A DNA stretch of 64,000 nucleotides from an uncultured Chloroflexia bacterium (GTDB taxonomy: Bacteria > Chloroflexota > Limnocylindria > Limnocylindrales > CSP1-4): NCBI GenBank assembly GCA_963712745.1, contig CAVQJC010000006.1:288001-352000 (forward strand), written 5' to 3'. The translations under genes were made by a program, and so were the position numbers. This document shows, piece by piece, positions 4,447 through 17,335 of this stretch. Under the pieces are notes generated by a model. The model did not search any database and was not told where the DNA came from. It was given only the letters and a program-made list of their open reading frames with translations. Within the stretch, counting starts at the first letter, position 1. Every line of letters begins with the position of its first letter.

Positions 4447-4600
4447 TCCGGAAGGCTAGCGGTCATGTCCAGTCGGCCGGATGGTTCCTTGGTCCCATCG
4501 CGAGTCCACCACATCGCACCCCTCCGACCACGAGAACCCCCGGGGGTGGCCCATTCGTACCCCGGGGGCAGCGGCGAGACCGTTGCTAGTGTGGGATGCA

Positions 4601-6238
4601 ATGGCCATCCCCATCCTGCTCTTCGTGGTCGCGCTGGCCGTGCGCGTAGTCACGGCGATGCTGTTCGCCGAACCGGCCTACCCCGACGCGCTCTACTACG
4701 TGAACTTGGGGCGTGAGCTGGCCGCCGGTGGCGGCTTCAGCGTGGACTACATCTGGAACTTCGTGGAGGTCGGCGGGGTGCTGCCCGAGCAAGGCAGCTT
4801 GCCCATCCCTTCGAATGCGCATTGGATGCCCCTCGCGGCGGTGGTGCAGGTGCCCTTCATCTGGATCTTGGGCCCGACCGCGGTCGCGTCGGCGCTTCCG
4901 TTCTGGCTGGCCGCGGCAGCGACGTCTCCCCTGGCCTATCTCATCGGCCGCGACGCCGGGATGCCCGGCTGGCAGGCAGCGGCCGCCGGCTTGCTGGTGG
5001 CCGTACCGGCGGGCGTGTCGGCGTACCTCGGTCAGCCCGACAACTTCGCCCTGTTCATGTTCCTGGGCGCGCTCGCGCTGTGGCTCTGCGCAAGGGGCCT
5101 GCGGGGCCACAGGTGGTCCTTCGCAGCCGGCGGCCTTGTCGTCGGCCTGGCCTACCTCTCGCGCAACGACGGTGTGCTGCTGGGCGTGCCGTTCGCTCTG
5201 GCCTTCGTCCACGATCTGTTGCGCCGCCCAAGAGCCTCTCGCATCGGCTGGCCCGCAGCGTTGCTGTGTGCCGGTGGCTTCGTCCTGGTCGCCGCGCCCT
5301 GGTTGTTCCGTCAGCTGGACGTCTTCGGCTCACTCTCGCCCTCGTCGGTCGGCGGCCGCATCCTCTTCATCACCGAGTACCGCGAGCTCTACAGCGTGAG
5401 CACCGAGACCACCCTTGAGTCGTTCCTGTCGCAGGGTATCGGCCCCATCATCGAGAGCCGACTGCGGGGCCTGTGGGATGCCCTGCTGATCTTCGTGGCC
5501 GGGCCCATGCTGGCGCTGCTCGTACCATTCACGCTCGTCGGGGCATGGGTCAGTCGACGCAGCCGCGACTTCCTGCCGTGGTTCATCTATACCCTGACGC
5601 TGTTCGTCTTCACCGCGCTGGTCTCGGCCGTGCATGTCCCCTACGGCACGTTCATCCACTCGGCCGTGGCCCTGGTGCCCCACGCGTACCTGCTGGTGAT
5701 GCTCGGCGTAGCAGCCGCCGTGGGCTGGGTGGCAGCACGCCGCACGTCATGGGACGCCCCGCGCGCCAGCCGCAACTTCAGCCTGATGCTGGTCGGTGTC
5801 ATCGCCGCGGTGTCGGTGGTCGCGACGCTCTCCACCACGAGTGCGTGGCGACGTGAGCGCGACAGCCGGGTGGAAATCCTGGCCGCCCTCGCGGCCGACG
5901 CGCAGCCTGGCGACGTCGTCATGAGCCCTGACGCCGGCGCGTACCGGTACCACGGCGGCTGGGCCGGCGTGGTCACGCCCGACGATCCCCTGGCTGTGGT
6001 CGAAGAGGCATTGCGGCGATACGACGTGCGTTGGCTGGCACTGGAGAGCGCGCATATCACCGCCGGCCTTCGCCCCGTGCTTGCCGGCGAGCTCAGGCCG
6101 GACTGGCTCTCCGAACCGCTCGTCGTGCTGCCGCCCCTGCCGGCCAAGGAGGAAGACGGGCAAGCTGCTGAGCGGCTGCCGCGGGCGGCGCTGTACGCCG
6201 TCTGCCTTGGTCCTGCCGACGCGCGGTGCGACAAATGA
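4601..6238 (+). CDS. GT-C (PMT/ArnT-like, GT39/83) membrane glycosyltransferase
   Basis: TM followed by PDALYY..GRELAAGGG, then HWMPL, SRNDG and PWLFRQ; about 12 TMs plus a C-terminal extracytoplasmic domain. Confidence 0.7.
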   Translation: MAIPILLFVVALAVRVVTAMLFAEPAYPDALYYVNLGRELAAGGGFSVDYIWNFVEVGGVLPEQGSLPIPSNAHWMPLAAVVQVPFIWILGPTAVASALPFWLAAAATSPLAYLIGRDAGMPGWQAAAAGLLVAVPAGVSAYLGQPDNFALFMFLGALALWLCARGLRGHRWSFAAGGLVVGLAYLSRNDGVLLGVPFALAFVHDLLRRPRASRIGWPAALLCAGGFVLVAAPWLFRQLDVFGSLSPSSVGGRILFITEYRELYSVSTETTLESFLSQGIGPIIESRLRGLWDALLIFVAGPMLALLVPFTLVGAWVSRRSRDFLPWFIYTLTLFVFTALVSAVHVPYGTFIHSAVALVPHAYLLVMLGVAAAVGWVAARRTSWDAPRASRNFSLMLVGVIAAVSVVATLSTTSAWRRERDSRVEILAALAADAQPGDVVMSPDAGAYRYHGGWAGVVTPDDPLAVVEEALRRYDVRWLALESAHITAGLRPVLAGELRPDWLSEPLVVLPPLPAKEEDGQAAERLPRAALYAVCLGPADARCDK

Positions 6239-7887
6239 GCGTGTACATCCCCTTGGGCCTGTATCTGCTGGCGCTGGCCGTCCGCCTGCTGGCGGCAGCA
6301 GAGATCCCTTTCCCTACGACCGAGCCCAGCGCCTACTACGTCGGCGTGGCACAGAACCTAGTGGCCGGGAACGGACTCGTCAGCGACGCGGTCTGGAGCT
6401 ACGCCACGCCGCCGTTGGAGGCACCCAAGCCGGCCTTCGAGCTGTGGCTGCCGATGAGCACCTTCGTGTCGGCGGCGGCCATGTCGGTGCTGGGTTCCAC
6501 GTTCTGGGCAGCCCAGGTGGGTTCGTCACTGCTGGGGGCAGCCGTGGCGCCGCTGGCCTGGGCCATCGGCCGCGAAGCCGCGAATGCCCACGGGCTCGAC
6601 ATGAGACGCGGAAGAGCCGTGGCGATCACCTCGGGTCTGCTCGCCGCCGTGCTCAGCCCGCTCGTCCTCGGTTCCGCCGTACCCGATTCCTACACACCCT
6701 TCACCGTCTTCCTGTTGGCTGGGGCGCTGCTCGTACCGAGGGTCATCGGCTTCCGCGACGGACACGACGAGGCCAGGGGTCCAGACATCCTCGCCGGCCT
6801 TGGGCTCGGTGTGGCCCTGGGACTGGCCTACCTCTCGCGCCAGGAGGTCATCTGGCTAGGTCTGACCTTCGTCCTCATGCTGGCCTGGACCGCGCGCACG
6901 AGGCCGGCCGGCAGGCGCCTCCGGGAGTCCGTCAGGCGCCTGTGGCCGGTCGTGGCCGGTGGCCTGGTGATAGTGGTCCCGTGGCTGCTGCGCAACGCAC
7001 TCGAGCTGGGTGGCCCGTTTCCTGGACAGGCAGTGGAGAACATGTTCCTCCTCGAGAACGAGGACATCTTCGCCTGGCGCGACCGCCCCGATGTGGCCAC
7101 GTACCTGGGTCAGGGCCTGGGCACGGTGCTGTGGAACCCGCTGGTCGCAGCCTGGGACAGCCTCCTCAACGTAGTGATCTTGCCGGCCTTCCCAGTCGGC
7201 ATCGCCGGCCTGATCGCCCTGGTCGGCATGCGGCGCTCCCCAGCGCTGCGTCGCCCGACCGCGCTCGTGGCTGTGCTTGTCAGCGCGCTACTCACGTTCG
7301 CGACCACGATGCTGTTGTTCCCCGTAGCCACCCTGTGGGGCACGTTCATGCATGCCTCGGGGCCGCTGCTGGTGGGCCTTGGTGTGGTGGCTGCGCTTGG
7401 CGGCGACGCCCTGCTGGCTCGCGTCTCGACACGCCGGGGCTGGGAGCGACCCAACATCATCCTCGCGCCCATCGCCCTGGTGGCCACGGCGGCAGTGATG
7501 ACCGCCTTCAGCGTGGCAGTCCTCTCCGAGCAGTCGCGTTCGACCCAGGCGCGATACGCGGCGCTGGCGACCCAGCTCCGCGAGGTCGCCGTGGCGGACG
7601 GGGAGGCCGTTCCCCCCACGCTGATCAGCGACCATCCCATGTGGCTCGCCGCTGCGCTCGGAGGCCAGGCGGTCGTCCTGCCCGACGAGGATCTCGATGC
7701 CATCCTCGAGCTGGCGGATGTCTTCGAGGCGCCCTGGGTCGTCGTCATCGACGAGCGCGGGCCCTACCCCGAGGCCCTGCTCAGGGAGGACGCACGGGGC
7801 TGCCTGACGACCGATCCAGTGCCCCTGGAGGCGGCAGACGAGGGCTCATGGCTGTTCCGGCTGGCCGATGCGTGCACGTCATCGTGA
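6235..7887 (+). CDS. Second GT-C membrane glycosyltransferase, paralog of the upstream gene
   Basis: ATGA overlap with the upstream stop. Parallel motifs: SAYY..AQNLVAGNG, LWLPM, SRQE, PWLLRN, GTFMHA. Confidence 0.7.
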   Translation: MSVYIPLGLYLLALAVRLLAAAEIPFPTTEPSAYYVGVAQNLVAGNGLVSDAVWSYATPPLEAPKPAFELWLPMSTFVSAAAMSVLGSTFWAAQVGSSLLGAAVAPLAWAIGREAANAHGLDMRRGRAVAITSGLLAAVLSPLVLGSAVPDSYTPFTVFLLAGALLVPRVIGFRDGHDEARGPDILAGLGLGVALGLAYLSRQEVIWLGLTFVLMLAWTARTRPAGRRLRESVRRLWPVVAGGLVIVVPWLLRNALELGGPFPGQAVENMFLLENEDIFAWRDRPDVATYLGQGLGTVLWNPLVAAWDSLLNVVILPAFPVGIAGLIALVGMRRSPALRRPTALVAVLVSALLTFATTMLLFPVATLWGTFMHASGPLLVGLGVVAALGGDALLARVSTRRGWERPNIILAPIALVATAAVMTAFSVAVLSEQSRSTQARYAALATQLREVAVADGEAVPPTLISDHPMWLAAALGGQAVVLPDEDLDAILELADVFEAPWVVVIDERGPYPEALLREDARGCLTTDPVPLEAADEGSWLFRLADACTSS

Positions 7888-8092
7888 GTACTGGCGCAGG
7901 GACGGCCCCTCTCAACCCCTATACTCCGAGCCACATGGACCGCGGGACGCCGCGTGCGCGGCGGCAAGGAACCGGGAGACAAGAGGCATGCACAGGGGCC
8001 ACAGCCCCCGGCATGCGACTCGAAGTTGTCGGCCAAGCAATCCGGGGCACGATGCTGCGGCTCGAGCCTCACCCCAGGGAGAGGAGTGTGGA

Positions 8093-8839
8093 ATGACTCC
8101 GGGCGAGTACCAGGGACCTGATCGACGCCGAGGCGGCCCCGACCGGCGAGAGCCTAATGCGCGGGTCAAGATCCTGCTCGTCGATGACCACGCCCTGTTC
8201 CGGGTGGGCATGCGGCAGACCCTTGACGCTGAGGACGACTTCGATGTCGTGGCCGAAGCTGACGACTCCCGCAGTGCCATCGATGCGGCGGCGGCGAGCA
8301 CGCCGGATATCGTGCTGCTCGACCTGTCGCTGCCGGCCCCCGGTGGGATCGAGACGACGCAGCGAGTGAAGCGCGAGGTGCCCAGCGCCGGCATCATCGC
8401 ACTGGCCGCGACCGAGGACGAGGACCAGCTCTTCGAGGCCATCAAGGCCGGCGCGGCTGCGTTCCTGCTCAAGGACATCGGACCAGAGGACCTTGTCACC
8501 ATCATCCGCCGGGTCAACAACGGCGAGTACCTCATCAACGACAAGGTCTTCGCGCGCCCGTCAGTCGCGAATCGTGTGCTCAAGGAATTCCGTGAGCTGG
8601 CCGTCTATGGGCAAGAAGCTGCCCCCATCTTCGCGCCCCTTTCCCCGCGTGAGGTCGAGATCCTCGACAACATCGCCAAGGGCATGACCAACAAGCAGGT
8701 GGCCTATGCCCTGTCGATCAGCGAGCAGACCGTCAAGAACCACATGAGCTCGATCCTCCGCAAGCTCTCGGTCAACGACCGCACGCAGGCCGTCGTCTAC
8801 GCCATGAAGCAGGGCTGGATCAGGATCCCCGAGGATTGA
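8093..8839 (+). CDS. NarL/FixJ-family (DegU-like) response regulator, REC + LuxR HTH
   Basis: GAGGAG RBS; LLVDDH, LLDLSLP, FLLKD and LSPREVEIL..GMTNKQVA..ISEQTVKNH motifs. Confidence 0.92.
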   Translation: MTPGEYQGPDRRRGGPDRREPNARVKILLVDDHALFRVGMRQTLDAEDDFDVVAEADDSRSAIDAAAASTPDIVLLDLSLPAPGGIETTQRVKREVPSAGIIALAATEDEDQLFEAIKAGAAAFLLKDIGPEDLVTIIRRVNNGEYLINDKVFARPSVANRVLKEFRELAVYGQEAAPIFAPLSPREVEILDNIAKGMTNKQVAYALSISEQTVKNHMSSILRKLSVNDRTQAVVYAMKQGWIRIPED

Positions 8840-10197
8840 GCAGCCCGGACCCTTCGCGCACACCCGGGCCTCCACCGGCCGTCGCGGGTCAACCGACCGC
8901 GCCGACTCCCGCGCCGCCTGAACCAGGCATGCCTCCCCCAGCCCCGGGCGCTTCGGCCCCGGGTCAGGCCGCCACAGCGGCCGGGCGGCCACCAGAGGGC
9001 CTCCCGGCGAGTCCACCACCAGGCACGCGACCAGGTCCGGCCACCATCATCAGCCTCCGTTCCGAGCTCGAAGACGACATCAGTCGCATCGAGGGGGAGA
9101 ACAGCGAGATCGACCTGCTCATGGAGCAGGTGCTCGTGGAGATCGAGCGGCACGAGGCTCGCCGGGCCAAGATGGAGACACGCCTGGCCGCGCTCGAGAC
9201 CGCCGCCACGCCCGACCCGGATGAGCTCAGAGAGGTCCGCGACGGACTCCTGGCACTGACCCGGAGAGAGCTGCTGTTCGACGCACAGCGGCAGGTGCTG
9301 GAGGGCAAGCAACGCGTGCTCGCCCGGTTCCTCCAACGGCTCGTCGAAATCGACAACAGCCTCTCGTCCATGGGTGGCGGCCCGTCTCGGCCCGCGCCCG
9401 TGGCCTCGCCCGGCCTGCGCCCGCTGGCAGCGGCAGCTGGCGGTAGTGGTGCGCCAGGGCTCAACCAGCCAGCCATGACCATGCGAAGCCAGGAGGACCT
9501 ACGCCGCGAGATCGTGCGCCAGCTCCACGACGGTCCGGCCCAGTCGCTGGCCAATATCGGCCTGCAGGCAGAGATCGTCGAGCGCCTGATGCAGAGGCAG
9601 GATCCGCGCGCGACCGACGAGATCGAGGTCCTCCGCCAGCTCGTGCAACAGTCGCTCGACACGACCAAGGAGTTCATCTTCGAGATCCGGCCGATGGTGC
9701 TCGACGACCTTGGCCTGGGGCCCACCATCCGGCGCATCGCCGCTGACCGGGCGCGACGTACCGGCATCAACGTGGAGTACGACTCCCACGGCCCCGAGGA
9801 GCGGCTCGACTCGGACATCGAGAGCGCCATCTATCGCAGTGTCGTGGAAGCCATCGCCGGCTACCTCGCGCTGCGCCCGCCGTCGGTGCTGGTGCGCCTG
9901 GACTGGGGCGAGCGCGAGCTGGTGGCCAGCGTCGAGGGCACCTGGCCTCGCTTCAACCCGGAGGGGCAGGCTGAGGCGAGCGAAGCTGCCACGGCCCGCT
10001 CGATGGAGACGCCGCCGGCGCTACTGGCGATGATGGAGGAGAGGCGGTCCGCCGACCTTGAAGCCGACGTCGCCGCGCGCTCACTCGCGCCCGAGAAGGT
10101 CAAGGAGATCGGCGAACGCGCTCGGGCTCTGGGTCTCACCCTGTCGATCCGCGACGATGGCCAGATCATGGAGCTGGTAGCCCCCATCAAGCGCTAG
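8836..10197 (+). CDS. DegS-like soluble HisKA_3 histidine kinase with degenerate HATPase domain
   Basis: Coiled coil, LHDGPAQSLAN H-box and IFEIRPMVLDDLGL as in DegS. N, G1 and G2 boxes are not recognisable. Confidence 0.8.
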   Translation: MSSPDPSRTPGPPPAVAGQPTAPTPAPPEPGMPPPAPGASAPGQAATAAGRPPEGLPASPPPGTRPGPATIISLRSELEDDISRIEGENSEIDLLMEQVLVEIERHEARRAKMETRLAALETAATPDPDELREVRDGLLALTRRELLFDAQRQVLEGKQRVLARFLQRLVEIDNSLSSMGGGPSRPAPVASPGLRPLAAAAGGSGAPGLNQPAMTMRSQEDLRREIVRQLHDGPAQSLANIGLQAEIVERLMQRQDPRATDEIEVLRQLVQQSLDTTKEFIFEIRPMVLDDLGLGPTIRRIAADRARRTGINVEYDSHGPEERLDSDIESAIYRSVVEAIAGYLALRPPSVLVRLDWGERELVASVEGTWPRFNPEGQAEASEAATARSMETPPALLAMMEERRSADLEADVAARSLAPEKVKEIGERARALGLTLSIRDDGQIMELVAPIKR

Positions 10198-10218
10198 ATC
10201 GCCGGGCGAGGGTCCGCT

Positions 10219-11148
10219 TCAGGCGATCGCGCGGAAGTGCTGCCAGAGGGAGAGGTCGAGGTCGGGGACCAGCTTACGCAGGCGCCGGACCTCGGGTGTG
10301 TAGTAGCGGACCAGCAGGTCGATGTGCTCGTCGGACACGGCGACCTTCTCCAGCTTGGCCTTGTTGCGCGGGCGGGCCAGCTCGTCTGGTGGCAGCTCGA
10401 ACGGCGACAGGCCCAGGAATTCGAACGTCCGCGCCAGCTGCCCGGCGGCGTCGGCCGCACAAGACTCGTACTGCAACACCAGCAGCCGCTCGGGCGGGTA
10501 CTGCTCCAGCAGCCACTCGATCTGGGTGGCGTAGAGCCCGCGTTCGATGGCGTCGGTCACGACTCGCACGCGGTCACCGAACACGCGCACGGCGCCGGTC
10601 ACGTCCTCGCCGTCGAGGAGGCCGCCCCGGTCCTGGTGGCTCATGCCCGAGATGTACCTCTCGATGGGGTCTCGTAGCAGGACGATGCCCTTGGCGTCGG
10701 GCGCGGCCAGCTTGACCATCGGCGGCACCCAGGCACAGTTCATGTACTCGGGTGTCTTCTCGCCGACGATCTTGCCCGCCGGACGCGGGAAGTAGCTGTG
10801 ATACTGGAGGATCTGCTCGTCGGTCGGCCACTCGGACCAGAGACGGTCGAAGAAGTGGAGCTCCGGGCGCTGGTTCTCAGGCTGAACCACCCCGGGATGC
10901 TGCTCGATGAGTCGGAACCACCAGGTGGTGCCCGACTTCTGCGCGCCGAAGATGACGAAGTCCGGTGCGCCGGTGGTCCAGCCCTCGGGGCAATCCGGAT
11001 GCGGCGCCAGGGTCTCGAAGACCTTGCGGCGGGCACGTACGCTGGCCGGGTCCATGGCCTTGTCGCCGCGGCGCGGCGCGGGCTTGGCAGCCGCAGGCTG
11101 GTAGAGACCGAGTCTGCGGCGCAGTCGGCGCAGTCGGATCTGGCGCAT
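10219..11148 (-). CDS. PAPS-dependent sulfotransferase
   Basis: 5'-PSB loop GAQKSGTT, ELHFFD, GEKTPEY and 3'-PB LRDPIERYIS. Start uncertain. Confidence 0.85.
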   Translation of the reverse strand: MRQIRLRRLRRRLGLYQPAAAKPAPRRGDKAMDPASVRARRKVFETLAPHPDCPEGWTTGAPDFVIFGAQKSGTTWWFRLIEQHPGVVQPENQRPELHFFDRLWSEWPTDEQILQYHSYFPRPAGKIVGEKTPEYMNCAWVPPMVKLAAPDAKGIVLLRDPIERYISGMSHQDRGGLLDGEDVTGAVRVFGDRVRVVTDAIERGLYATQIEWLLEQYPPERLLVLQYESCAADAAGQLARTFEFLGLSPFELPPDELARPRNKAKLEKVAVSDEHIDLLVRYYTPEVRRLRKLVPDLDLSLWQHFRAIA

Positions 11149-11540
11149 ACGCGAACCTCGGGGATGAAGCGGGAAGGTGACCGGCCGAATCATAGCCGCC
11201 GGGACCCGAGGGTGCCGTTCGCGACGAGGTCCGACAACCGTTCCGCGGCCGGGCCCTGCCTCCGGCTTGCGAACCGCTCGCAGGTACACAGGACTCCTAC
11301 CACGGCTCCTATGCCGTATAGCCCGATAGTCATATCGCCGGAGCGGCCGGGCCTGCCTAGGATTCCGGTGACACTTGTCACACCAGTTGGAGTCCTGCTC
11401 TTGTTGTCAACCCCCGGCGAGCACGTGCTCGGACCGCTTCGAGCGAATGCACACCGTCCGCCCGGTCGAATCGCGGCTCCCGGTCTACCCTTGGGCACCC
11501 ACTTCGGCCGCCTGCCGACCATGGCCACGAGGAACCGAGC

Positions 11541-12770
11541 GTGAGCGAACAGATCCGAGTCGTCATCGTCGATGACATCGCCGAGACCCGAGAACACCTG
11601 ACCAAGCTGCTCTCGTTCGAGTCAGATATCCAGGTCGTGGGTGCGGCTTCGTCTGGCGAGGAAGCGGTCGACATCACCGGAAAGCTCCAGCCCGACATCG
11701 TCCTCATGGACATCAACATGCCGGGTATGGACGGCATCGCCACCACGGAGCGGATCTCGGCCACCTTCCCCGCGACGTCCATCATCATGATGAGCGTCCA
11801 GGGCGAGGCCGACTACCTGCGTCGATCGATGCTGGCCGGTGCCCGCGAGTTCCTGGTGAAGCCCTTCAGCTCCGACGAGCTCACTGCCTCCATCCGGCAG
11901 GTGCACGTGCGTGAGAAGCAGAAGCGCGGGCGCATGGTCGTGCCGGCCCAGGCTGTGCCAGGCGGGGACTCGGACAAGAAGGACGGCAAGATCGTCACTC
12001 TCTTCGCTCCCAAGGGCGGAGTCGGTCGCACCACGCTTGCGGTCAACCTGGCGGTGGCGATGGCCGGTGAGCAGCGCCAGGCAGTAACGTTGGTGGACGG
12101 TTCGTTCCAGTTCGGCGATGTCGGCGTGCTGTTGAACCTGAACCCCAAGAACAAGTCCATCATCGATGTCGTGGCCGACCCGGGCACCACCGACGAGGAC
12201 CTCGTCGACACCACGCTCATCAACCACAGCACAGGCATCAAGGTGCTCCTGGCGCCGCCCAGCCCCGAGATGGCCGAGCTCATCACCGTCGACCAGATCC
12301 GGCGCATGATGGGCCGTCTGCGCCAGACCAACGACTTCACCGTGGTCGATCTGTGGCCACACTTCAACGACGTTTCGCTGGCCCTGCTCGACATGTCGGA
12401 CGTGATCCTCACGATCCTGACCCTCGAGATCACCAACATCAAGAACATCCGCCTGTTCCTCGAGGTGGCCGACCAACTCGGCTACGGCGACCGGCTCAAG
12501 CTCGTACTCAACCGAGCGGACTCGGCCTTCGGCATCCGCGTGGCCGACGTCGAGAACTCGGTCGGCCGCAAGATCGACCACCAGGTCGTTTCCGACGGAC
12601 GGACCGTCGTATACGCGCTCAACCGTGGCGTCCCGTTCGTGTGGAGCAATAGCCAGGCTCCCGTGAGCGAAGACATCCTCAAGATCTCACGTGCCCTGGT
12701 CTCGGAAGAAGGCTCCTCCGAGGGTGACGCAGAGAAGGAGCCGGCACGCAAACTCTTCGGACGGCGGTGA
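11541..12770 (+). CDS. cpaE: CpaE/TadZ-like protein: REC domain + MinD/ParA ATPase
   Basis: IVDD..LMDINMP REC domain and deviant Walker A KGGVGRTT; lies directly upstream of CpaF. Confidence 0.85.
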   Translation: MSEQIRVVIVDDIAETREHLTKLLSFESDIQVVGAASSGEEAVDITGKLQPDIVLMDINMPGMDGIATTERISATFPATSIIMMSVQGEADYLRRSMLAGAREFLVKPFSSDELTASIRQVHVREKQKRGRMVVPAQAVPGGDSDKKDGKIVTLFAPKGGVGRTTLAVNLAVAMAGEQRQAVTLVDGSFQFGDVGVLLNLNPKNKSIIDVVADPGTTDEDLVDTTLINHSTGIKVLLAPPSPEMAELITVDQIRRMMGRLRQTNDFTVVDLWPHFNDVSLALLDMSDVILTILTLEITNIKNIRLFLEVADQLGYGDRLKLVLNRADSAFGIRVADVENSVGRKIDHQVVSDGRTVVYALNRGVPFVWSNSQAPVSEDILKISRALVSEEGSSEGDAEKEPARKLFGRR

Positions 12771-12804
12771 AGTCGTCATGGATCCTCGCTAGGGAGATGT
12801 CGAG

Positions 12805-14232
12805 ATGTCACTGCTGAAGCGAATTGAGAGCGCCAAGCCTGCGGGTGGTGGCGCGCCAGTCGGACCCCTGCCGCCTCCGCCGCCCGGAGGTGCCCAGCCG
12901 CCGCCTGCCATGCCTCCGGGCGCTGTTGCTCCGCCGCCGATGCCGCAGCGCGTCATCAGCCAGGTGCCGGTGCGCGAGTCCTTCCGCGACACCAAGTACC
13001 GCATCCAGCAGCGGGTCATCTCCGACCTGGACCCCAAGCTCGACCTCACCAACCAGGTCGAGGTCCGGCGCCAGATCGAAGAGATCTTCAGCATCGCAGT
13101 CGACGAAGAGGGCCTGGCCCTCACGCGCGCCGAACGCGTGCGCATGCTGGAGCAGATCACCGACGAGATCGTGGGCCTCGGCCCGCTCGAGCCGCTGCTG
13201 CGTGACGAGTCCATCACCGAGATCATGGTCAACGGCCCGCGCCAGGTCTACATCGAGCGCGGCGGCAAACTGGAACTGACCAACATCTCGTTCCAGAACG
13301 ACGACCACGTGATGCGCATCATCGATCGCATCATCAGCCCCATCGGCCGCCGAGTCGACGAGTCAAGCCCGATGGTTGACGCCCGTCTCACCGACGGCTC
13401 CCGCGTCAACGCCATCATCCCGCCCCTCTCGCTGGTCGGCCCCGTCATCACCGTCCGCAAGTTCGCGGCCTCGCCCTTCACCGTCGACGACCTCATCCGC
13501 TTCGGCACGGCCACTCCCGAGATGTTCGACTTCCTCAAGGCCTGCGTCGAGGCGCGCCTCAATGTCTTCGTCTCGGGCGGTACAGGCTCCGGCAAGACCA
13601 CGACCCTCAACGTGCTCTCCTCGTTCATCCCCAACGACGAGCGCATCGTGACCATCGAGGACGCGGCCGAGCTGCAGCTCCGCCAGGAGCACGTCATCAC
13701 GCTCGAATCTCGGCCGCCCAATATCGAGGGCAAGGGCGCCATCCCCATTCGCGAACTCGTGCGCAACTCGCTGCGCATGCGGCCTGACCGCATCGTCGTG
13801 GGTGAGGTCCGGTCGGCCGAGGCCCTCGACATGCTCCAGGCCATGAATACGGGCCACGACGGTTCGATGTCCACCGGCCACTCCAACAGCCCGCGCGACA
13901 TGCTCGCGCGCGTGGAGACGATGGTGCTGATGGCCGGTGTCGACCTGCCGTTGCGGGCCATCCGCGAGCAGATCGCCTCCGCCGTCGACCTCATCGTCCA
14001 CCAGTCCCGCATGAAGGACGGCTCGCGCCGCGTGACCAGCATCACCGAGGTGCAGGGCATGGAGGGCGACGTCATCGTGATGCAGGAAGTCTTCACCTTC
14101 GAGCAGACTGGTGTCGTAGATGGCCAGATCCAGGGTCTGCTGCGGCCCACCGGCATCCGGCCCAAGTTCACCGAGAAGTTCGAGGTCATGGGCATCAACC
14201 TGCCGCCGGCCCTCTTCGGTTACCGGTCCTAG
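12805..14232 (+). CDS. cpaF: CpaF/TadA pilus assembly ATPase
   Basis: GLGPLEPLL, SGGTGSGKTT, IEDAAEL, LRMRPDRIVVGEVR and AMNTGHDGS motifs. Confidence 0.95.
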   Translation: MSLLKRIESAKPAGGGAPVGPLPPPPPGGAQPPPAMPPGAVAPPPMPQRVISQVPVRESFRDTKYRIQQRVISDLDPKLDLTNQVEVRRQIEEIFSIAVDEEGLALTRAERVRMLEQITDEIVGLGPLEPLLRDESITEIMVNGPRQVYIERGGKLELTNISFQNDDHVMRIIDRIISPIGRRVDESSPMVDARLTDGSRVNAIIPPLSLVGPVITVRKFAASPFTVDDLIRFGTATPEMFDFLKACVEARLNVFVSGGTGSGKTTTLNVLSSFIPNDERIVTIEDAAELQLRQEHVITLESRPPNIEGKGAIPIRELVRNSLRMRPDRIVVGEVRSAEALDMLQAMNTGHDGSMSTGHSNSPRDMLARVETMVLMAGVDLPLRAIREQIASAVDLIVHQSRMKDGSRRVTSITEVQGMEGDVIVMQEVFTFEQTGVVDGQIQGLLRPTGIRPKFTEKFEVMGINLPPALFGYRS

Positions 14233-14242
14233 GAGCTAAGCC

Positions 14243-15262
14243 ATGGATCCTGCCGTCCTCGTCGCCATCATGGCCGCCGCCGCGGTCCTGCTGCTGTTCT
14301 TCGGCGTCTTCGGCGGCCGCCGCGTCTCGCCCACCGAACGCATCGAGCAGGTCGCCATCGCGGCGACCGAGGCCCGCAAGCGTGACGAAAGCGCAGCGGA
14401 CAAGAAGTCCCTACGCTCACGGCTCTTCGGTGGCCGAGCAGCGGCAGGCGTCGACCGCGCGGTGTCACAGCGAGACTGGGGCTCGACCATGGCCCGCGAT
14501 CTGGCGCGTGCCGACCTGCAGCTACGCCCCTCGGAGTACCTGGCCATCCGCATCGCGGCGGTGATCGGAGCCCCGGTGGTGTTGTTCCTGCTCGGAAAGA
14601 CGATCATGCCCGGGCTCGACAATCCCATCGCGCTGCTAGTGGCCACGGTCATGGGCTGGTGGGTCCCGCGCTTCTACGTGGGACGCCGCAAGGCCAAGCG
14701 CCTGCAGGCGTTCAACGACCACCTAGCTGACACCATCACGCTGGTCGCCAATGCCCTGCGCGCCGGCGCTTCCTTCCTGCAAGCCATCGAGCTGGTCGTC
14801 CGGGAGACCCAGCCGCCTATCTCCACCGAGTTCAACCGCGTCATCCGCGAGGTGAACCTGGGCCTGCCCTTCGAACAGGCACTGGCCAACATGGTGCGGC
14901 GCGTCCGCTCCGATGACCTCGAGCTGATGACTACGGCCATCTCCATCCAGCACCAGGTCGGCGGCAACCTCGCGGAGATCCTGGACTCCATCGCCTTCAC
15001 CATCCGCGAGCGCATCCGCATCCAGGGCGAGATCCGGACCCTTACCGCACAGCAGAGGCTCTCCGGCTACGTGGTGGCGGGCCTGCCCATCTTCCTGGTC
15101 CTCCTGCTCTCGGTCATCGCACCGACGTTCATGGAGCCGATGTTCCTGGCCCCGCCGGACGTGCTCGGCATCCCGCTGGGCGTGATCATCCTCGCTATCG
15201 GCGGGGTCATGATGCTCATCGGCTTCCTGGCCATCCGCCGCATCGTCGACATCGAGGTCTAG
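14243..15262 (+). CDS. tadB: TadB (T2SS F family) platform protein
   Basis: ALRAGAS..EF.RV..E.NLG and GGNLAEIL motifs; operon position. Confidence 0.9.
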   Translation: MDPAVLVAIMAAAAVLLLFFGVFGGRRVSPTERIEQVAIAATEARKRDESAADKKSLRSRLFGGRAAAGVDRAVSQRDWGSTMARDLARADLQLRPSEYLAIRIAAVIGAPVVLFLLGKTIMPGLDNPIALLVATVMGWWVPRFYVGRRKAKRLQAFNDHLADTITLVANALRAGASFLQAIELVVRETQPPISTEFNRVIREVNLGLPFEQALANMVRRVRSDDLELMTTAISIQHQVGGNLAEILDSIAFTIRERIRIQGEIRTLTAQQRLSGYVVAGLPIFLVLLLSVIAPTFMEPMFLAPPDVLGIPLGVIILAIGGVMMLIGFLAIRRIVDIEV

Positions 15263-15266
15263 CGCA

Positions 15267-16199
15267 ATGGGAATCCCCTTCCTCATGGCGCTGCTGGCTG
15301 CCGGCGGCGTCCTGCTCATCGTCTGGGCCCTGCTCGGGGCTCGCACCTCCGACCCGGTCCAGGCTCGTCTGAGCCAGCTGGGTACCCTCGAAGGTGTCAC
15401 CAGCCTCGAGGAGATCGAGCTCCAGCAGCCGGTCATGGACCGCACCCTGCGTCCGCTCATGCGGCGGCTCGCTGGTATCGGTACCCGGCTGACCTCCCGC
15501 GAGCGCGTGGGTCGCACCGAGGGCCGCCTCGCAGAAGCCGGCTATCCCTACGGGCTGCGTACGATCGACTTCATGGGCCTCAAGGTCGTGGCTGCGCTCG
15601 TCGTCAGCGGCCTGGCCTTCCTGCTCTTCGGCGCGGCGCTGGGGTCGGGCGCGACCACGAGCCTGATCGTGGCCGGCGTGGCCCTGGTCATCGGTTTCTT
15701 CGTGCCCGATTACTGGCTGATCAGCCGCATCAGGGCCCGTCAGAAGGCGATCCTGCTAGCCATCCCCGACGTGCTCGACCTGCTCACCATCTCGGTCAAG
15801 GCCGGTCTCGGCTTCGATGCCGCGCTGGGCAAGGTCATCGAAAAGACGGAGGGACCGCTGACGGACGAGTTCCGTCGCGCTCTTGCGGAGGTCCGCATCG
15901 GCAAGCCCCGGCGCGATGCCCTCAAGGAGTTGGTGGCCCGTACCAACGTGCCGGCACTGACCAACTTCATCGGGGCCATCATCCAGGCCGAGCAGCTCGG
16001 TGTAGCCATCGCCAACGTCCTCGAAGTGCAGGCGGAGCAGCTCCGCATCGAGCGCCGCCAGCGCGCCGAGGAGATGGCCGCCAAGGCGCCCATCAAGATG
16101 CTCTTCCCGCTCGTTGGCTGCATCTTCCCCTCGATGTTCATCGTCATCCTGGGGCCGGCAATGATCCTCATCGTCAAGAACCTGGGCAACGTCAACTAG
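15267..16199 (+). CDS. tadC: TadC (T2SS F family) platform protein
   Basis: PDVLDLL..SVKAGLGFD and AEEMAAKAPIKMLFPLV..IFP motifs. Confidence 0.9.
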   Translation: MGIPFLMALLAAGGVLLIVWALLGARTSDPVQARLSQLGTLEGVTSLEEIELQQPVMDRTLRPLMRRLAGIGTRLTSRERVGRTEGRLAEAGYPYGLRTIDFMGLKVVAALVVSGLAFLLFGAALGSGATTSLIVAGVALVIGFFVPDYWLISRIRARQKAILLAIPDVLDLLTISVKAGLGFDAALGKVIEKTEGPLTDEFRRALAEVRIGKPRRDALKELVARTNVPALTNFIGAIIQAEQLGVAIANVLEVQAEQLRIERRQRAEEMAAKAPIKMLFPLVGCIFPSMFIVILGPAMILIVKNLGNVN

Positions 16200-16235
16200 G
16201 TCGGCGGGCCCTCGCCTGAAGATGGATCGAGAACC

Positions 16236-16658
16236 ATGAGTGGAGACCGATTGCGCCTGCGCCGGGTCGGTGACGACACTGTCGTGTGTCACCGGGTCGT
16301 GCTCGGCAAGTCCTTCGCTCAGCGCTTCATGGGCCTCATGGGGCGTGCGTCGATAGCCGACGGAGAAGGCCTCTATCTGCCCACCTCGAGCATCCACATG
16401 ATGTTCATGCGCTTCCCCATCGACGCGCTCTTCGTCTCGAAGGCCGCGGACGGCGAGCATCGAGCGGTGGTCGGCGTCCGACCCGATCTACCGCCCTGGC
16501 GCGGCATCGTGCTGCCCGTGCGCGGTGCGGAAGGCGTCGTCGAGATGCCCGCGGGCACCCTCGCTCGTGCGGGCGTGAAGGTCGGCGACCAAGTCGTCAT
16601 CGAGCCCACGCCCAGCGTCGGACAAGACACCGATAAGGCCGGGGAGAGCGAGGTCTAA
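16236..16658 (+). CDS. DUF192 family protein
   Basis: RFMGLMGR, IHMMFMRFPIDALF and VVEMPAG motifs. Confidence 0.85.
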   Translation: MSGDRLRLRRVGDDTVVCHRVVLGKSFAQRFMGLMGRASIADGEGLYLPTSSIHMMFMRFPIDALFVSKAADGEHRAVVGVRPDLPPWRGIVLPVRGAEGVVEMPAGTLARAGVKVGDQVVIEPTPSVGQDTDKAGESEV

Positions 16659-16681
16659 GGGTTCGGCGCCAGGCTTGGCGC

Positions 16682-17335
16682 GTGCGTTTCCTGATGGACC
16701 TGTTGCTCCCGCCTACCTGCCCCGGATGTGGGCGCGAGGGCAAGGTGCTCTGTGACGATTGCTGCGCGCCCTTGCGGCGCCGGCTGGCCGAACCGCCAGG
16801 TTCTCCCCTGGGCCTGCCGGCGGTGATGCCGCCCGGTCTGCTGCAGCTGGAGTGGTGCGCCATGTACAGCGGACCCGTGCGCGCCGCCCTCCATGCGCTC
16901 AAGTACCGCGGGGAGCGCCGGCTGGCCCAGCCGCTCGGGGCCGTGCTGGCCGAGCGCTGGAGGCGGGCGGGGCGGGGTGGGGATTTGCTGACGTGGGTGC
17001 CCGTCCACCCGTCCAGGCGCCGCGAGCGAGGCTTCGACCAGGCGGAGGAGCTGGCACGGGTCGTAGCCAGAGAGCTGAGCCTACCTGTGGAGCGCTGCCT
17101 CGAGCGTCGGCTCCGTACCAGCGCCCTCCACGGACTGAGCCGGGACGAACGCGCCGGCAGCACGGCTGGTGCGTTCGTCGCCGTGCCCGCCTCGAGGCCA
17201 TGGCTGCAGGGATGCTGGGTCGTCATCGTCGACGACATCCTGACCACCGGTGCGACGCTCGCAGGCTGCGCCGCGGCCCTGGCTGAGGGCGGTGCAGCGG
17301 CCGTCTCAGCCATGACCGTAGCGCGCGACCGCTGA
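16682..17335 (+). CDS. comF: ComF family protein (Zn finger + PRT domain)
   Basis: LLPPTCPGC..LCDDC, VPVH..RRRERGFDQ and IVDDILTTGATL motifs. Confidence 0.9.
   Translation: MRFLMDLLLPPTCPGCGREGKVLCDDCCAPLRRRLAEPPGSPLGLPAVMPPGLLQLEWCAMYSGPVRAALHALKYRGERRLAQPLGAVLAERWRRAGRGGDLLTWVPVHPSRRRERGFDQAEELARVVARELSLPVERCLERRLRTSALHGLSRDERAGSTAGAFVAVPASRPWLQGCWVVIVDDILTTGATLAGCAAALAEGGAAAVSAMTVARDR

Follow-up and report, generated by a model that had tools for sequence, protein, structure and literature searches.

The locus analysed here lies in a 64,000-nt stretch of the genome of an uncultured Chloroflexia bacterium (contig CAVQJC010000006.1, positions 288,001 to 352,000; hereafter the window) and comprises, in 5' to 3' order, the remnant of a histidine kinase gene, a response regulator gene of the NarL/FixJ family and the gene of a histidine pseudokinase, which, judging from gene architecture, very probably form the regulatory head of a Tad pilus locus in this member of the class Limnocylindria. 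New are the class-wide conservation of the regulator, the loss of its kinase in the sub-lineage of the window and a conserved Arg/Asp-rich tail at the N-terminus of the regulator. This tail is conserved as strongly as the folded domains and well above its flanks, and from its residues, which resemble the first half of a peptide motif of the Cle proteins, we tentatively propose that it binds cyclic di-GMP (c-di-GMP) as its most likely ligand. In the literature searched, no description of the tail or of a kinase-regulator-pseudokinase triad was found, and one article (PMC13212565) contains zero occurrences of c-di-GMP, Tad, pili and two-component. The elements of the locus are the following.

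7918..7926, plus strand: CCTATACTC element, with TATACT at 7920-7925, 9 nt before the ATG at 7935

7935..8096, plus strand: 53-codon stub of a deleted canonical HisKA_3 kinase (C-terminal alignment to the kinases of relatives)

8093..8839, plus strand: NarL/FixJ-family response regulator, 248 aa (Pfam, VraR alignment, AlphaFold2, orthologs); predicted disordered tail 1-24, receiver domain (REC) 25-145, conserved linker 146-184, GerE helix-turn-helix (HTH) domain 185-240

8108..8149, plus strand: residues 6-19 of the regulator, Arg/Asp-rich tail YQGPDRRRGGPDRR (sequence), resembling the first half of the arginine-rich (ARR) motif of Cle

8836..10197 (TTG 8836) or from ATG 8929, plus strand: soluble pseudo-histidine kinase (Pfam, hhalign, AlphaFold2, Foldseek); Pro-rich N-terminus, coiled coil, HisKA_3 dimerization and histidine phosphotransfer (DHp) domain 9502-9702, degenerate domain resembling a catalytic and ATP-binding (CA) domain at about 9718-10194

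9526-9528, plus strand: His231 of the pseudokinase, in HDGPAQ

The regulator gene starts with an ATG at 8093, located 8 nt past GGAGAGGAG, and ends with the TGA at 8837-8839. Since no other in-frame start codon occurs from this ATG to strand beta1 of the receiver, the tail is translated, and the initial concern that the true start might lie downstream of the motif does not apply. Pfam assigns Response_reg (PF00072) to residues 27-139 (E 5e-25) and GerE (PF00196) to residues 182-237 (E 2e-22), the best solved relatives are VraR, NarL and DevR, and the HMMER alignment with VraR (5hev_A) has an E of 1.9e-37. The AlphaFold2 model, based on a 95-sequence alignment, shows a mean confidence (pLDDT) of 84, with beta4 ending at residue 105 and with residues 1-24 disordered at a pLDDT of 44-47. 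Among NCBIfam models, NarL, NarP and MadR rank on top, the best one, NarL, reaching 160 bits versus a cut-off of 250. An assignment as DegU/DegS equivalog was dropped, as the regulator stays below every NCBIfam equivalog cut-off, and the label 'DegU-like' used in the preliminary description has to be given up accordingly; the protein combines a receiver with a GerE/LuxR-type HTH and is a member of the NarL/FixJ family, nothing more specific. Its sole Trp is W242 in the C-terminal QGWIRIP, with none across residues 1-241. The linker (residues 146-184; 8528-8644) is about 11-13 residues longer than that of VraR and near-invariant across the class (YLINDKVF..RVLKEFRELAVYG..IFAPLSPRE), and by its sequence looks like a conserved interaction surface. 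Contigs from RNA libraries (runs X15-X18) contain exact pieces of the locus (8169-8310, 8491-8730, 8550-8721, 8692-8878, 8926-9116 and 10028-10222), of which 8692-8878 spans the regulator stop and the partner start. With possible carry-over of DNA and transcript ends not visible in contigs, they give a weak hint at expression and co-transcription.

By the source names of its homologs, the organism belongs to Candidatus Limnocylindria/Limnocylindrales (Chloroflexota). Whole-protein search recovered orthologs of the regulator at 81-97% identity from each of the 24 further genomes sampled in the genus, two of them in pieces, and across the class Limnocylindria the gene was found in 245 of 301 genomes, class-wide tallies including 12 genomes flagged as unpublished. 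By family, these are 87/91 genomes in the family of the window (f1), 81/92 in f3, 74/103 in f4, 2/2 in f5 and 0/12 in f2. The C-terminal half is near-invariant, with a mean conservation of 0.97 in f1 and the same blocks in orthologs that are 55% identical overall.

Conservation of the tail was evaluated in 46 f1 orthologs that had been retrieved with the whole protein and thus represent an unbiased set. All 46 show [YF]xGx[DE]RRR as well as [DE]RRR[GS][GN]xDRR, and 42 also keep the strict form [YF]xGP[DE][RK]R. Averaged over columns, residues 6-19 reach a conservation of 0.90, compared to 0.38 and 0.46 in the flanks and 0.84 in the receiver. The N-terminal motif that the preliminary description had read at 8108-8149 is therefore real, translated and conserved among orthologs. 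In the window, the first copy, YQGPDRR, fits the Cle pattern exactly, and the second one, GGPDRR, is without the aromatic residue and has Gly at the x position. When the genome was translated in all six frames (8.43 M residues), 11 places fitted a relaxed tail pattern, of which only the one in the regulator lies inside a real gene, and roughly estimated, about 0.3 chance matches to one heptad can be expected per proteome. Hence, the weight of the tail evidence rests on its conservation. A search seeded on residues 1-40 gave 458 proteins, the best 120 of which all carry the motif, by construction of the query. With the tail omitted from the query, among the best 150 matches from 1.84 billion representatives, the motif was present only in close relatives (P0126, 77%; P0160, 72%), decayed Arg-rich versions appeared at 58-81% identity and nothing beyond. 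A degenerate DNA pattern of the tail matched in 46 of 61 genomes of the family but revealed no other tail-bearing proteins, as the nine second-site matches fetched were all located in Arg-rich non-coding frames. Outside f1, a shorter core, ERRRGGDRR, containing [RK]RxxD, is present in 6 of 8 loci of f4, and in f3 and f5 the tail was found in 0/5. Comparing families, f4 has the tail without the pseudokinase, f3 the pseudokinase without the tail, and the canonical kinase is present in f1, f3 and f4; because it thus tracks neither kinase gene, the tail is independent of the kinases.

Judging from its enzymes, the organism makes c-di-GMP: in the genome of the window (G000, 84.6% complete) 8 GGDEF and 5 EAL matches are encoded, with no PilZ found. 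In genomes at least 90% complete, a tally including 3 unpublished ones, GGDEF is present in 169/169 of f1, 52/52 of f4, 21/21 of f3, 1/1 of f5 and 0/9 of f2. Most f1 genomes have 7 to 13 or more GGDEF matches, and PilZ was detected in just 7 of 41. Consequently, non-PilZ receivers are needed in this family.

In the Cle proteins, the ARR motif is a tandem [Y/F]XGP[D/E][R/K]R located C-terminally in CheY-like proteins, just as it had been given in the preliminary description, and the published survey lists 302 such proteins, of which 294 come from Alphaproteobacteria and 3 from Cyanobacteria and 5 are unclassified, with none from Chloroflexota (PMC5677366). According to the structural work (PMC7382256), the CleD peptide ..AYVGPDRRRFNSADYKGPRKRKAD.. 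contacts its ligand via D154, R155, R156, Y163, R168, R169 and D172, with the key elements DRR and [R/K]RxxD 11 residues apart and Tyr163 and Gly165 in the loop between them. Cle-type peptides bind c-di-GMP 2:1 at nanomolar affinity, and Table 1 of the structural work gives a dissociation constant (Kd) of 177 nM for the minimal 19-residue CleD peptide CSP4, increasing to 4,365 nM in Y163A (about 25-fold) and to 7,657 nM in G165A, with no binding of R169A. Single-residue deletions in the loop resulted in Kd values of 338-1,948 nM, a 2- to 11-fold rise, and the Cle-derived peptide CSP1 is unfolded without ligand (PMC7382256). Several properties of the regulator are in line with this system. In both, a short disordered Arg/Asp-rich peptide is joined to a receiver domain; YxGPDRRR of the tail is identical to CleD AYVGPDRRR at 7 of 8 positions, so that the first half-motif fits; and the tail contains the DRR and RR elements that are c-di-GMP contacts in the nuclear magnetic resonance structure. 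Moreover, the tail is predicted to be disordered, as is reported for ligand-free CSP1, and the organism here also has c-di-GMP enzymes. The phospho-switch residues of the receiver are dispensable in Cle.

Several differences, however, weigh against c-di-GMP as the ligand. After YxGPDRRR, the tail runs into G-G-P-D-R-R-E-P-N, where G-P and R-R are retained but no aromatic residue stands at the position of CleD Tyr163, Asp replaces Arg167 and, in this genome, Asn replaces Asp172, the latter position being D/E in 20 of the 46 orthologs. The spacing between DRR and RR amounts to 5 residues (R-G-G-P-D) versus 11, leaving the loop 6 residues shorter. Furthermore, the tail is N-terminal on a REC-HTH factor, whereas the Cle motif is C-terminal on single-domain, FliM-binding CheY-like proteins, and helix alpha4 (110-119, EDQLFEAIKA) is without the Arg that is conserved in Cle. 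In addition, no second protein in the genomes searched carries the tail, which is hence no portable module of the Cle kind, f4 lacks the Y-x-G-P part, and f3 is without the tail yet has GGDEF genes and the same HTH. The co-absence of GGDEF and regulator in f2 speaks for a link to c-di-GMP but is weak, being a single evolutionary contrast in reduced genomes; these streamlined genomes (G025-G037, about 1.1 Mb) belong to the same order and show the regulator in 0/12 and GGDEF in 0/9. Going by spacing, position and the alpha4 Arg, the regulator is not a member of the Cle family, and the term 'Cle-type' in the preliminary description can be applied to the first half of the motif only. Nevertheless, to judge from its residues, the Arg/Asp chemistry by which guanine bases are bound is still present in the tail. 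Another receptor to be compared is VpsT, a REC-LuxR regulator binding c-di-GMP via W[F/L/M][T/S]R on an extra receiver helix. It shares with the regulator the combination of REC and LuxR-type HTH in a transcription factor and the proposal of c-di-GMP, in place of phosphorylation, as the driving input, but the regulator, having no Trp in residues 1-241, does not possess the W[F/L/M][T/S]R motif.

In the receiver, Asp31 and Asp32 of the acid pocket, the acceptor Asp77, Phe124 and Lys127 are all in place. At the beta4 Thr/Ser position, however, Ala105 is found, the Thr of VraR 'VTSF' aligning with Ala105 in 'LAAT' (HMMER, 5hev_A), and the full phospho-switch set (DD, D, T/S, K) is thus incomplete. 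Both observations had already been made from the sequence alone and agree with the VraR alignment, and the Thr-to-Ala exchange is conserved as well, 44 of the 46 f1 orthologs having Ala and the other 2 Ser. Asp31, Asp32, Asp77 and Lys127 are present in 46/46, kinase-less genomes included, and because of this invariance, phosphorylation has probably not been abandoned by the regulator. In other families, position 32 is Gly/Thr (8/8 in f4) or Ala, Ser or Pro (f3/f5), 4 of 5 f3/f5 orthologs have Glu at position 77, and position 105 is Ala in f4, as in f1, and Thr in f3/f5. The f3 regulators of loci L050, L051, L053 and L054, showing the Glu acceptor and Ala/Ser/Pro at the second acid-pocket position, are encoded between a canonical HisKA_3+HATPase kinase on the upstream side and the pseudokinase on the downstream side.

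For the pseudokinase, Pfam finds HisKA_3 (PF07730) alone (223-289, E 5e-12), PF02518 being absent, and the sequence search against the PDB gives only the DHp domain of DesK (222-292). All of the best 120 homologs listed likewise show PF07730 only and none PF02518; the source databases name homologs 'DegS'. A profile of 48 homologs was aligned with a canonical kinase of the same class at an hhalign probability of 98.9, and in this alignment the N-box QNVRKH is faced by AGYLAL and the G1 DNG by VEG; the N, G1 and G2 ATP boxes are absent. In the AlphaFold2 model of residues 205-453 (pLDDT 82), the DHp hairpin is followed by an alpha/beta domain with inserted helices, and the top Foldseek match is DesKC (3ehf_D, TM-score 0.74), followed by kinase cores, 4qpj, 4qpk and DivL (4q20). 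No transmembrane segment was found. As had been described, the partner has an intact H-box and no ATP boxes; it is a degenerate kinase in every relative seen, and thus a true pseudokinase with a conserved DHp domain, whose model keeps the whole kinase-core fold. HDGPxQ including His231 is retained in 49/49 downstream genes examined; in HisKA_3 kinases, the DxxxQ motif is needed for phosphatase activity (PMC3510030). Histidine and phosphatase motif of this widely conserved gene are under selection, and with both retained, the pseudokinase may still act on the phosphorylated regulator.

The pseudokinase resembles DegS-DegU of Bacillus subtilis and DesK-DesR in its HisKA_3 DHp domain with HDxxxQ, its soluble coiled-coil N-terminus, its NarL-family partner and, for DesKC, in being the best structural match of the model, but differs in the loss of the N, G1 and G2 boxes. 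In combining, according to the model, a DHp hairpin with a nucleotide-free, CA-like alpha/beta domain incapable of ATP binding, it is similar to ChpT, Spo0B and DivL. The latter, however, are of the HisKA or unrelated DHp types and work in defined phosphorelays, whereas the pseudokinase has a HisKA_3 DHp domain, retains the phosphatase motif and originated beside a canonical paralog. Regarding its start, the preliminary description assumed translational coupling, and TTG 8836 does overlap the regulator stop at 8837-8839; this TTG, however, is forced by GAT-TGA of the regulator, so that coupling is no more than plausible. Across 49 loci, a start candidate of the partner is located within -3 to about +40 nt of the regulator stop in most cases, and the two genes appear tightly linked. 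The gene call in the collection (P0273, 358 aa) would imply a start near Met96, too far downstream given that relatives conserve the coiled coil preceding this residue. The pseudokinase is found downstream of the regulator in f1 and f3/f5, and it was not found in 8 loci of f4. Frameshifted or split copies of the pseudokinase occur in L003 and L007, the upstream kinase frame is truncated in L020, the regulator is in pieces in G011 and G016, and an internal TGA is present in the G022 regulator; these damaged copies may be assembly errors or real decay.

The two-gene picture of regulator and partner holds for the sub-lineage of the window, but not for its relatives: in every family, nearly all relatives encode a canonical HisKA_3 kinase with N-box EALxNVxKH and G1 DDGxG directly 5' of the regulator, with PF02518 confirmed in that of L058, and in the window this gene is cut to the 53-codon stub. 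The TGA of the stub at 8094-8096 overlaps the regulator ATG (ATGA). At its end, 17-18 residues (..GTMLRLEPHPRERS..) match the very C-terminus of the L015-L017 kinases with 11/17 identical positions, at scores of 53-55 versus a maximum of 38-44 over 300 shuffles, and the same stub tail is present 5' of the regulator in L002, L005, L006, L009, L010, L012 and L013. The latter belong to group A, 14 loci of the genus (L001-L014, window included) without an upstream kinase; in G007 and G019 the kinase is in place. No kinase ortholog was found elsewhere in G000, G001, G009 and G010, where the best matches are paralogs at 31-38% identity. L002 also has the CCTATACTC element, and in L016, L017 and L018 it is found where the kinase gene starts; with its TATACT, it might represent a -10 box or a short-leader operon start. 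A consensus scan of 7800-10400 gave zero sigma-70-like promoters and zero terminators. On the simplest reading of these alignments, an internal deletion removed the kinase and retained operon start and stop-start junction; the deletion is recent and confined to the sub-lineage of the window.

Downstream and upstream of this cluster, the following genes are encoded.

4481-6238 and 6226-7887, plus strand: two PMT_2 (GT-C) glycosyltransferase genes, adjoining the kinase stub on its 5' side

10219-11289, minus strand: sulfotransferase gene between pseudokinase and tad operon

11541..17335, plus strand: Tad pilus operon (Pfam)

11541-12770, plus strand: REC-TadZ/CpaE-like protein

12805-14232, plus strand: CpaF

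14243-15262, plus strand: TadB

15267-16199, plus strand: TadC

16236-16658, plus strand: DUF192 protein, near the end of the tad operon

16682-17335, plus strand: ComF-like phosphoribosyltransferase with double zinc ribbon, at the end of the tad operon

In at least 19 genomes of the genus, a REC(-TadZ-like) match lies 3.3-4 kb from the regulator, and REC-TadZ and CpaF are found downstream of it in 8/8 f4 loci. The linkage to Tad underlying the idea that the regulator acts on the neighbouring Tad/ComF operon is thus conserved across the genus and in f4, and control itself is deduced by analogy: in Pseudomonas aeruginosa, the NarL/LuxR-family regulator of the PprA-PprB system, located inside the flp-rcp-tad locus, activates the Flp pilus genes (PMC3510237). 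Owing to this analogy, the regulator is expected to control tad transcription, with the tad operon as its likely target. PprAB shares the NarL-type regulator and the kinase encoded within the Tad/Flp locus but belongs to another phylum and is a classical pair without pseudokinase, Arg-rich tail or kinase deletion. No convincing inverted repeat was detected by an operator search in the intergenic regions 7880-8100 and 11280-11545 (zero pairs, one 77% palindrome), and no convincing small open reading frame for a Flp pilin was recognised between 11200 and 11560. In the TadZ/CpaE-like protein, the receiver has every phospho-switch residue (VDD, LMDINMP, MMS, VKP). The receiver-like domains described in other TadZ/CpaE proteins are reported to be degenerate.

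In the working model preferred here, the regulator would still use its intact Asp pocket, served by other phosphodonors here and by the cognate kinase in relatives, and the pseudokinase would dock on its receiver as phosphatase or holding partner. The tail would provide a second, independent input as a short Cle-like peptide folding around c-di-GMP, the two tails of a regulator dimer perhaps sharing an intercalated c-di-GMP dimer, and the level of the second messenger would thereby feed into transcription of the adjoining tad genes. A competing, slightly less likely explanation is that of an ordinary phospho-dependent NarL-type regulator, with a role of the tail other than c-di-GMP binding and a likeness to Cle due to convergence over few residues. 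In this case, the tail might dock on an acidic surface (kinase, pseudokinase, RNA polymerase or TadZ) or alternatively contact the DNA or RNA backbone or fold back onto the acidic receiver pocket. The invariant phosphorylation residues, the canonical kinase upstream in nearly all relatives and the functioning of family f3 without a tail are in its favour, as are the Cle match being limited to the first half, with wrong spacing and position, and the composition of the protein, for which a heptad match is not rare (10 of the hits mentioned above are off-frame). On the other hand, the tail tracking neither pseudokinase nor kinase across families argues against obligate docking on either, the tail is at the opposite protein end from the HTH, and Y-x-G-P-D-R-R-R specifically matches a peptide shown to bind c-di-GMP.

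The wording of the preliminary description, 'c-di-GMP rather than phosphorylation', goes further than either and is too strong, considering the pocket intact in 46/46 and the kinase retained by nearly all relatives. Taken literally, with phosphorylation given up, c-di-GMP as sole input and the pseudokinase inert or purely structural, it is improbable. It would account for the kinase deletion here and in 13 other group A loci without an ortholog elsewhere in the four genomes searched, for the nearly fixed Ala at the switch position and for the pocket decay in other families (Asp32 to Gly/Thr in f4, Asp77 to Glu in f3/f5), but the acid pocket, acceptor Asp and Lys are invariant also in kinase-less genomes, the pseudokinase His and DxxxQ in 49/49 genes are hard to explain without phosphoryl chemistry, and the tail is missing from f3, where receiver decay is most advanced. 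Even less probable is a role of the pseudokinase as ChpT/Spo0B-like phosphotransferase between the two receivers encoded nearby, the regulator REC and the TadZ/CpaE-like REC, by which transcription would be coupled to pilus assembly, a scheme also compatible with c-di-GMP binding by the tail. The modelled DHp and nucleotide-free CA-like fold, with 4qpj and 4qpk among the Foldseek matches besides DesK, the invariant His and the complete DD, D, S, K set of the TadZ receiver point in this direction; however, no phosphodonor kinase is left at the locus of this genome, f4 has REC-TadZ without pseudokinase, and DxxxQ indicates phosphatase chemistry. Finally, c-di-GMP binding by the tail can be embedded in a more comprehensive scheme, which as a whole we consider rather unlikely: the tail would be an independently evolved, minimal ARR-type c-di-GMP sensor on a class-wide Tad master regulator, c-di-GMP would have become the main input after the kinase deletion, and the His-bearing pseudokinase would reset or relay the residual phosphoryl signal, possibly to the TadZ receiver.

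Should the latter scheme be true, the regulator would be the first ARR-type sensor outside CheY-like motor regulators and Alphaproteobacteria. If the 14-residue tail suffices for c-di-GMP, the Cle-type linear peptide would have arisen more than once, here in a shorter form, and an uncultured class abundant in soil and sediment would be provided with a transcription-factor effector of this messenger. The families would then also offer a natural variant series for the minimum needs of binding, ranging from the complete tail (f1) through the 9-residue core (f4) to its absence (f3). Aside from c-di-GMP, two features of the locus stand out: a recent deletion within a histidine kinase gene, by which operon start and stop-start overlap were spared, and a HisKA_3 pseudokinase of wide conservation, with selection acting on its His and phosphatase motif.

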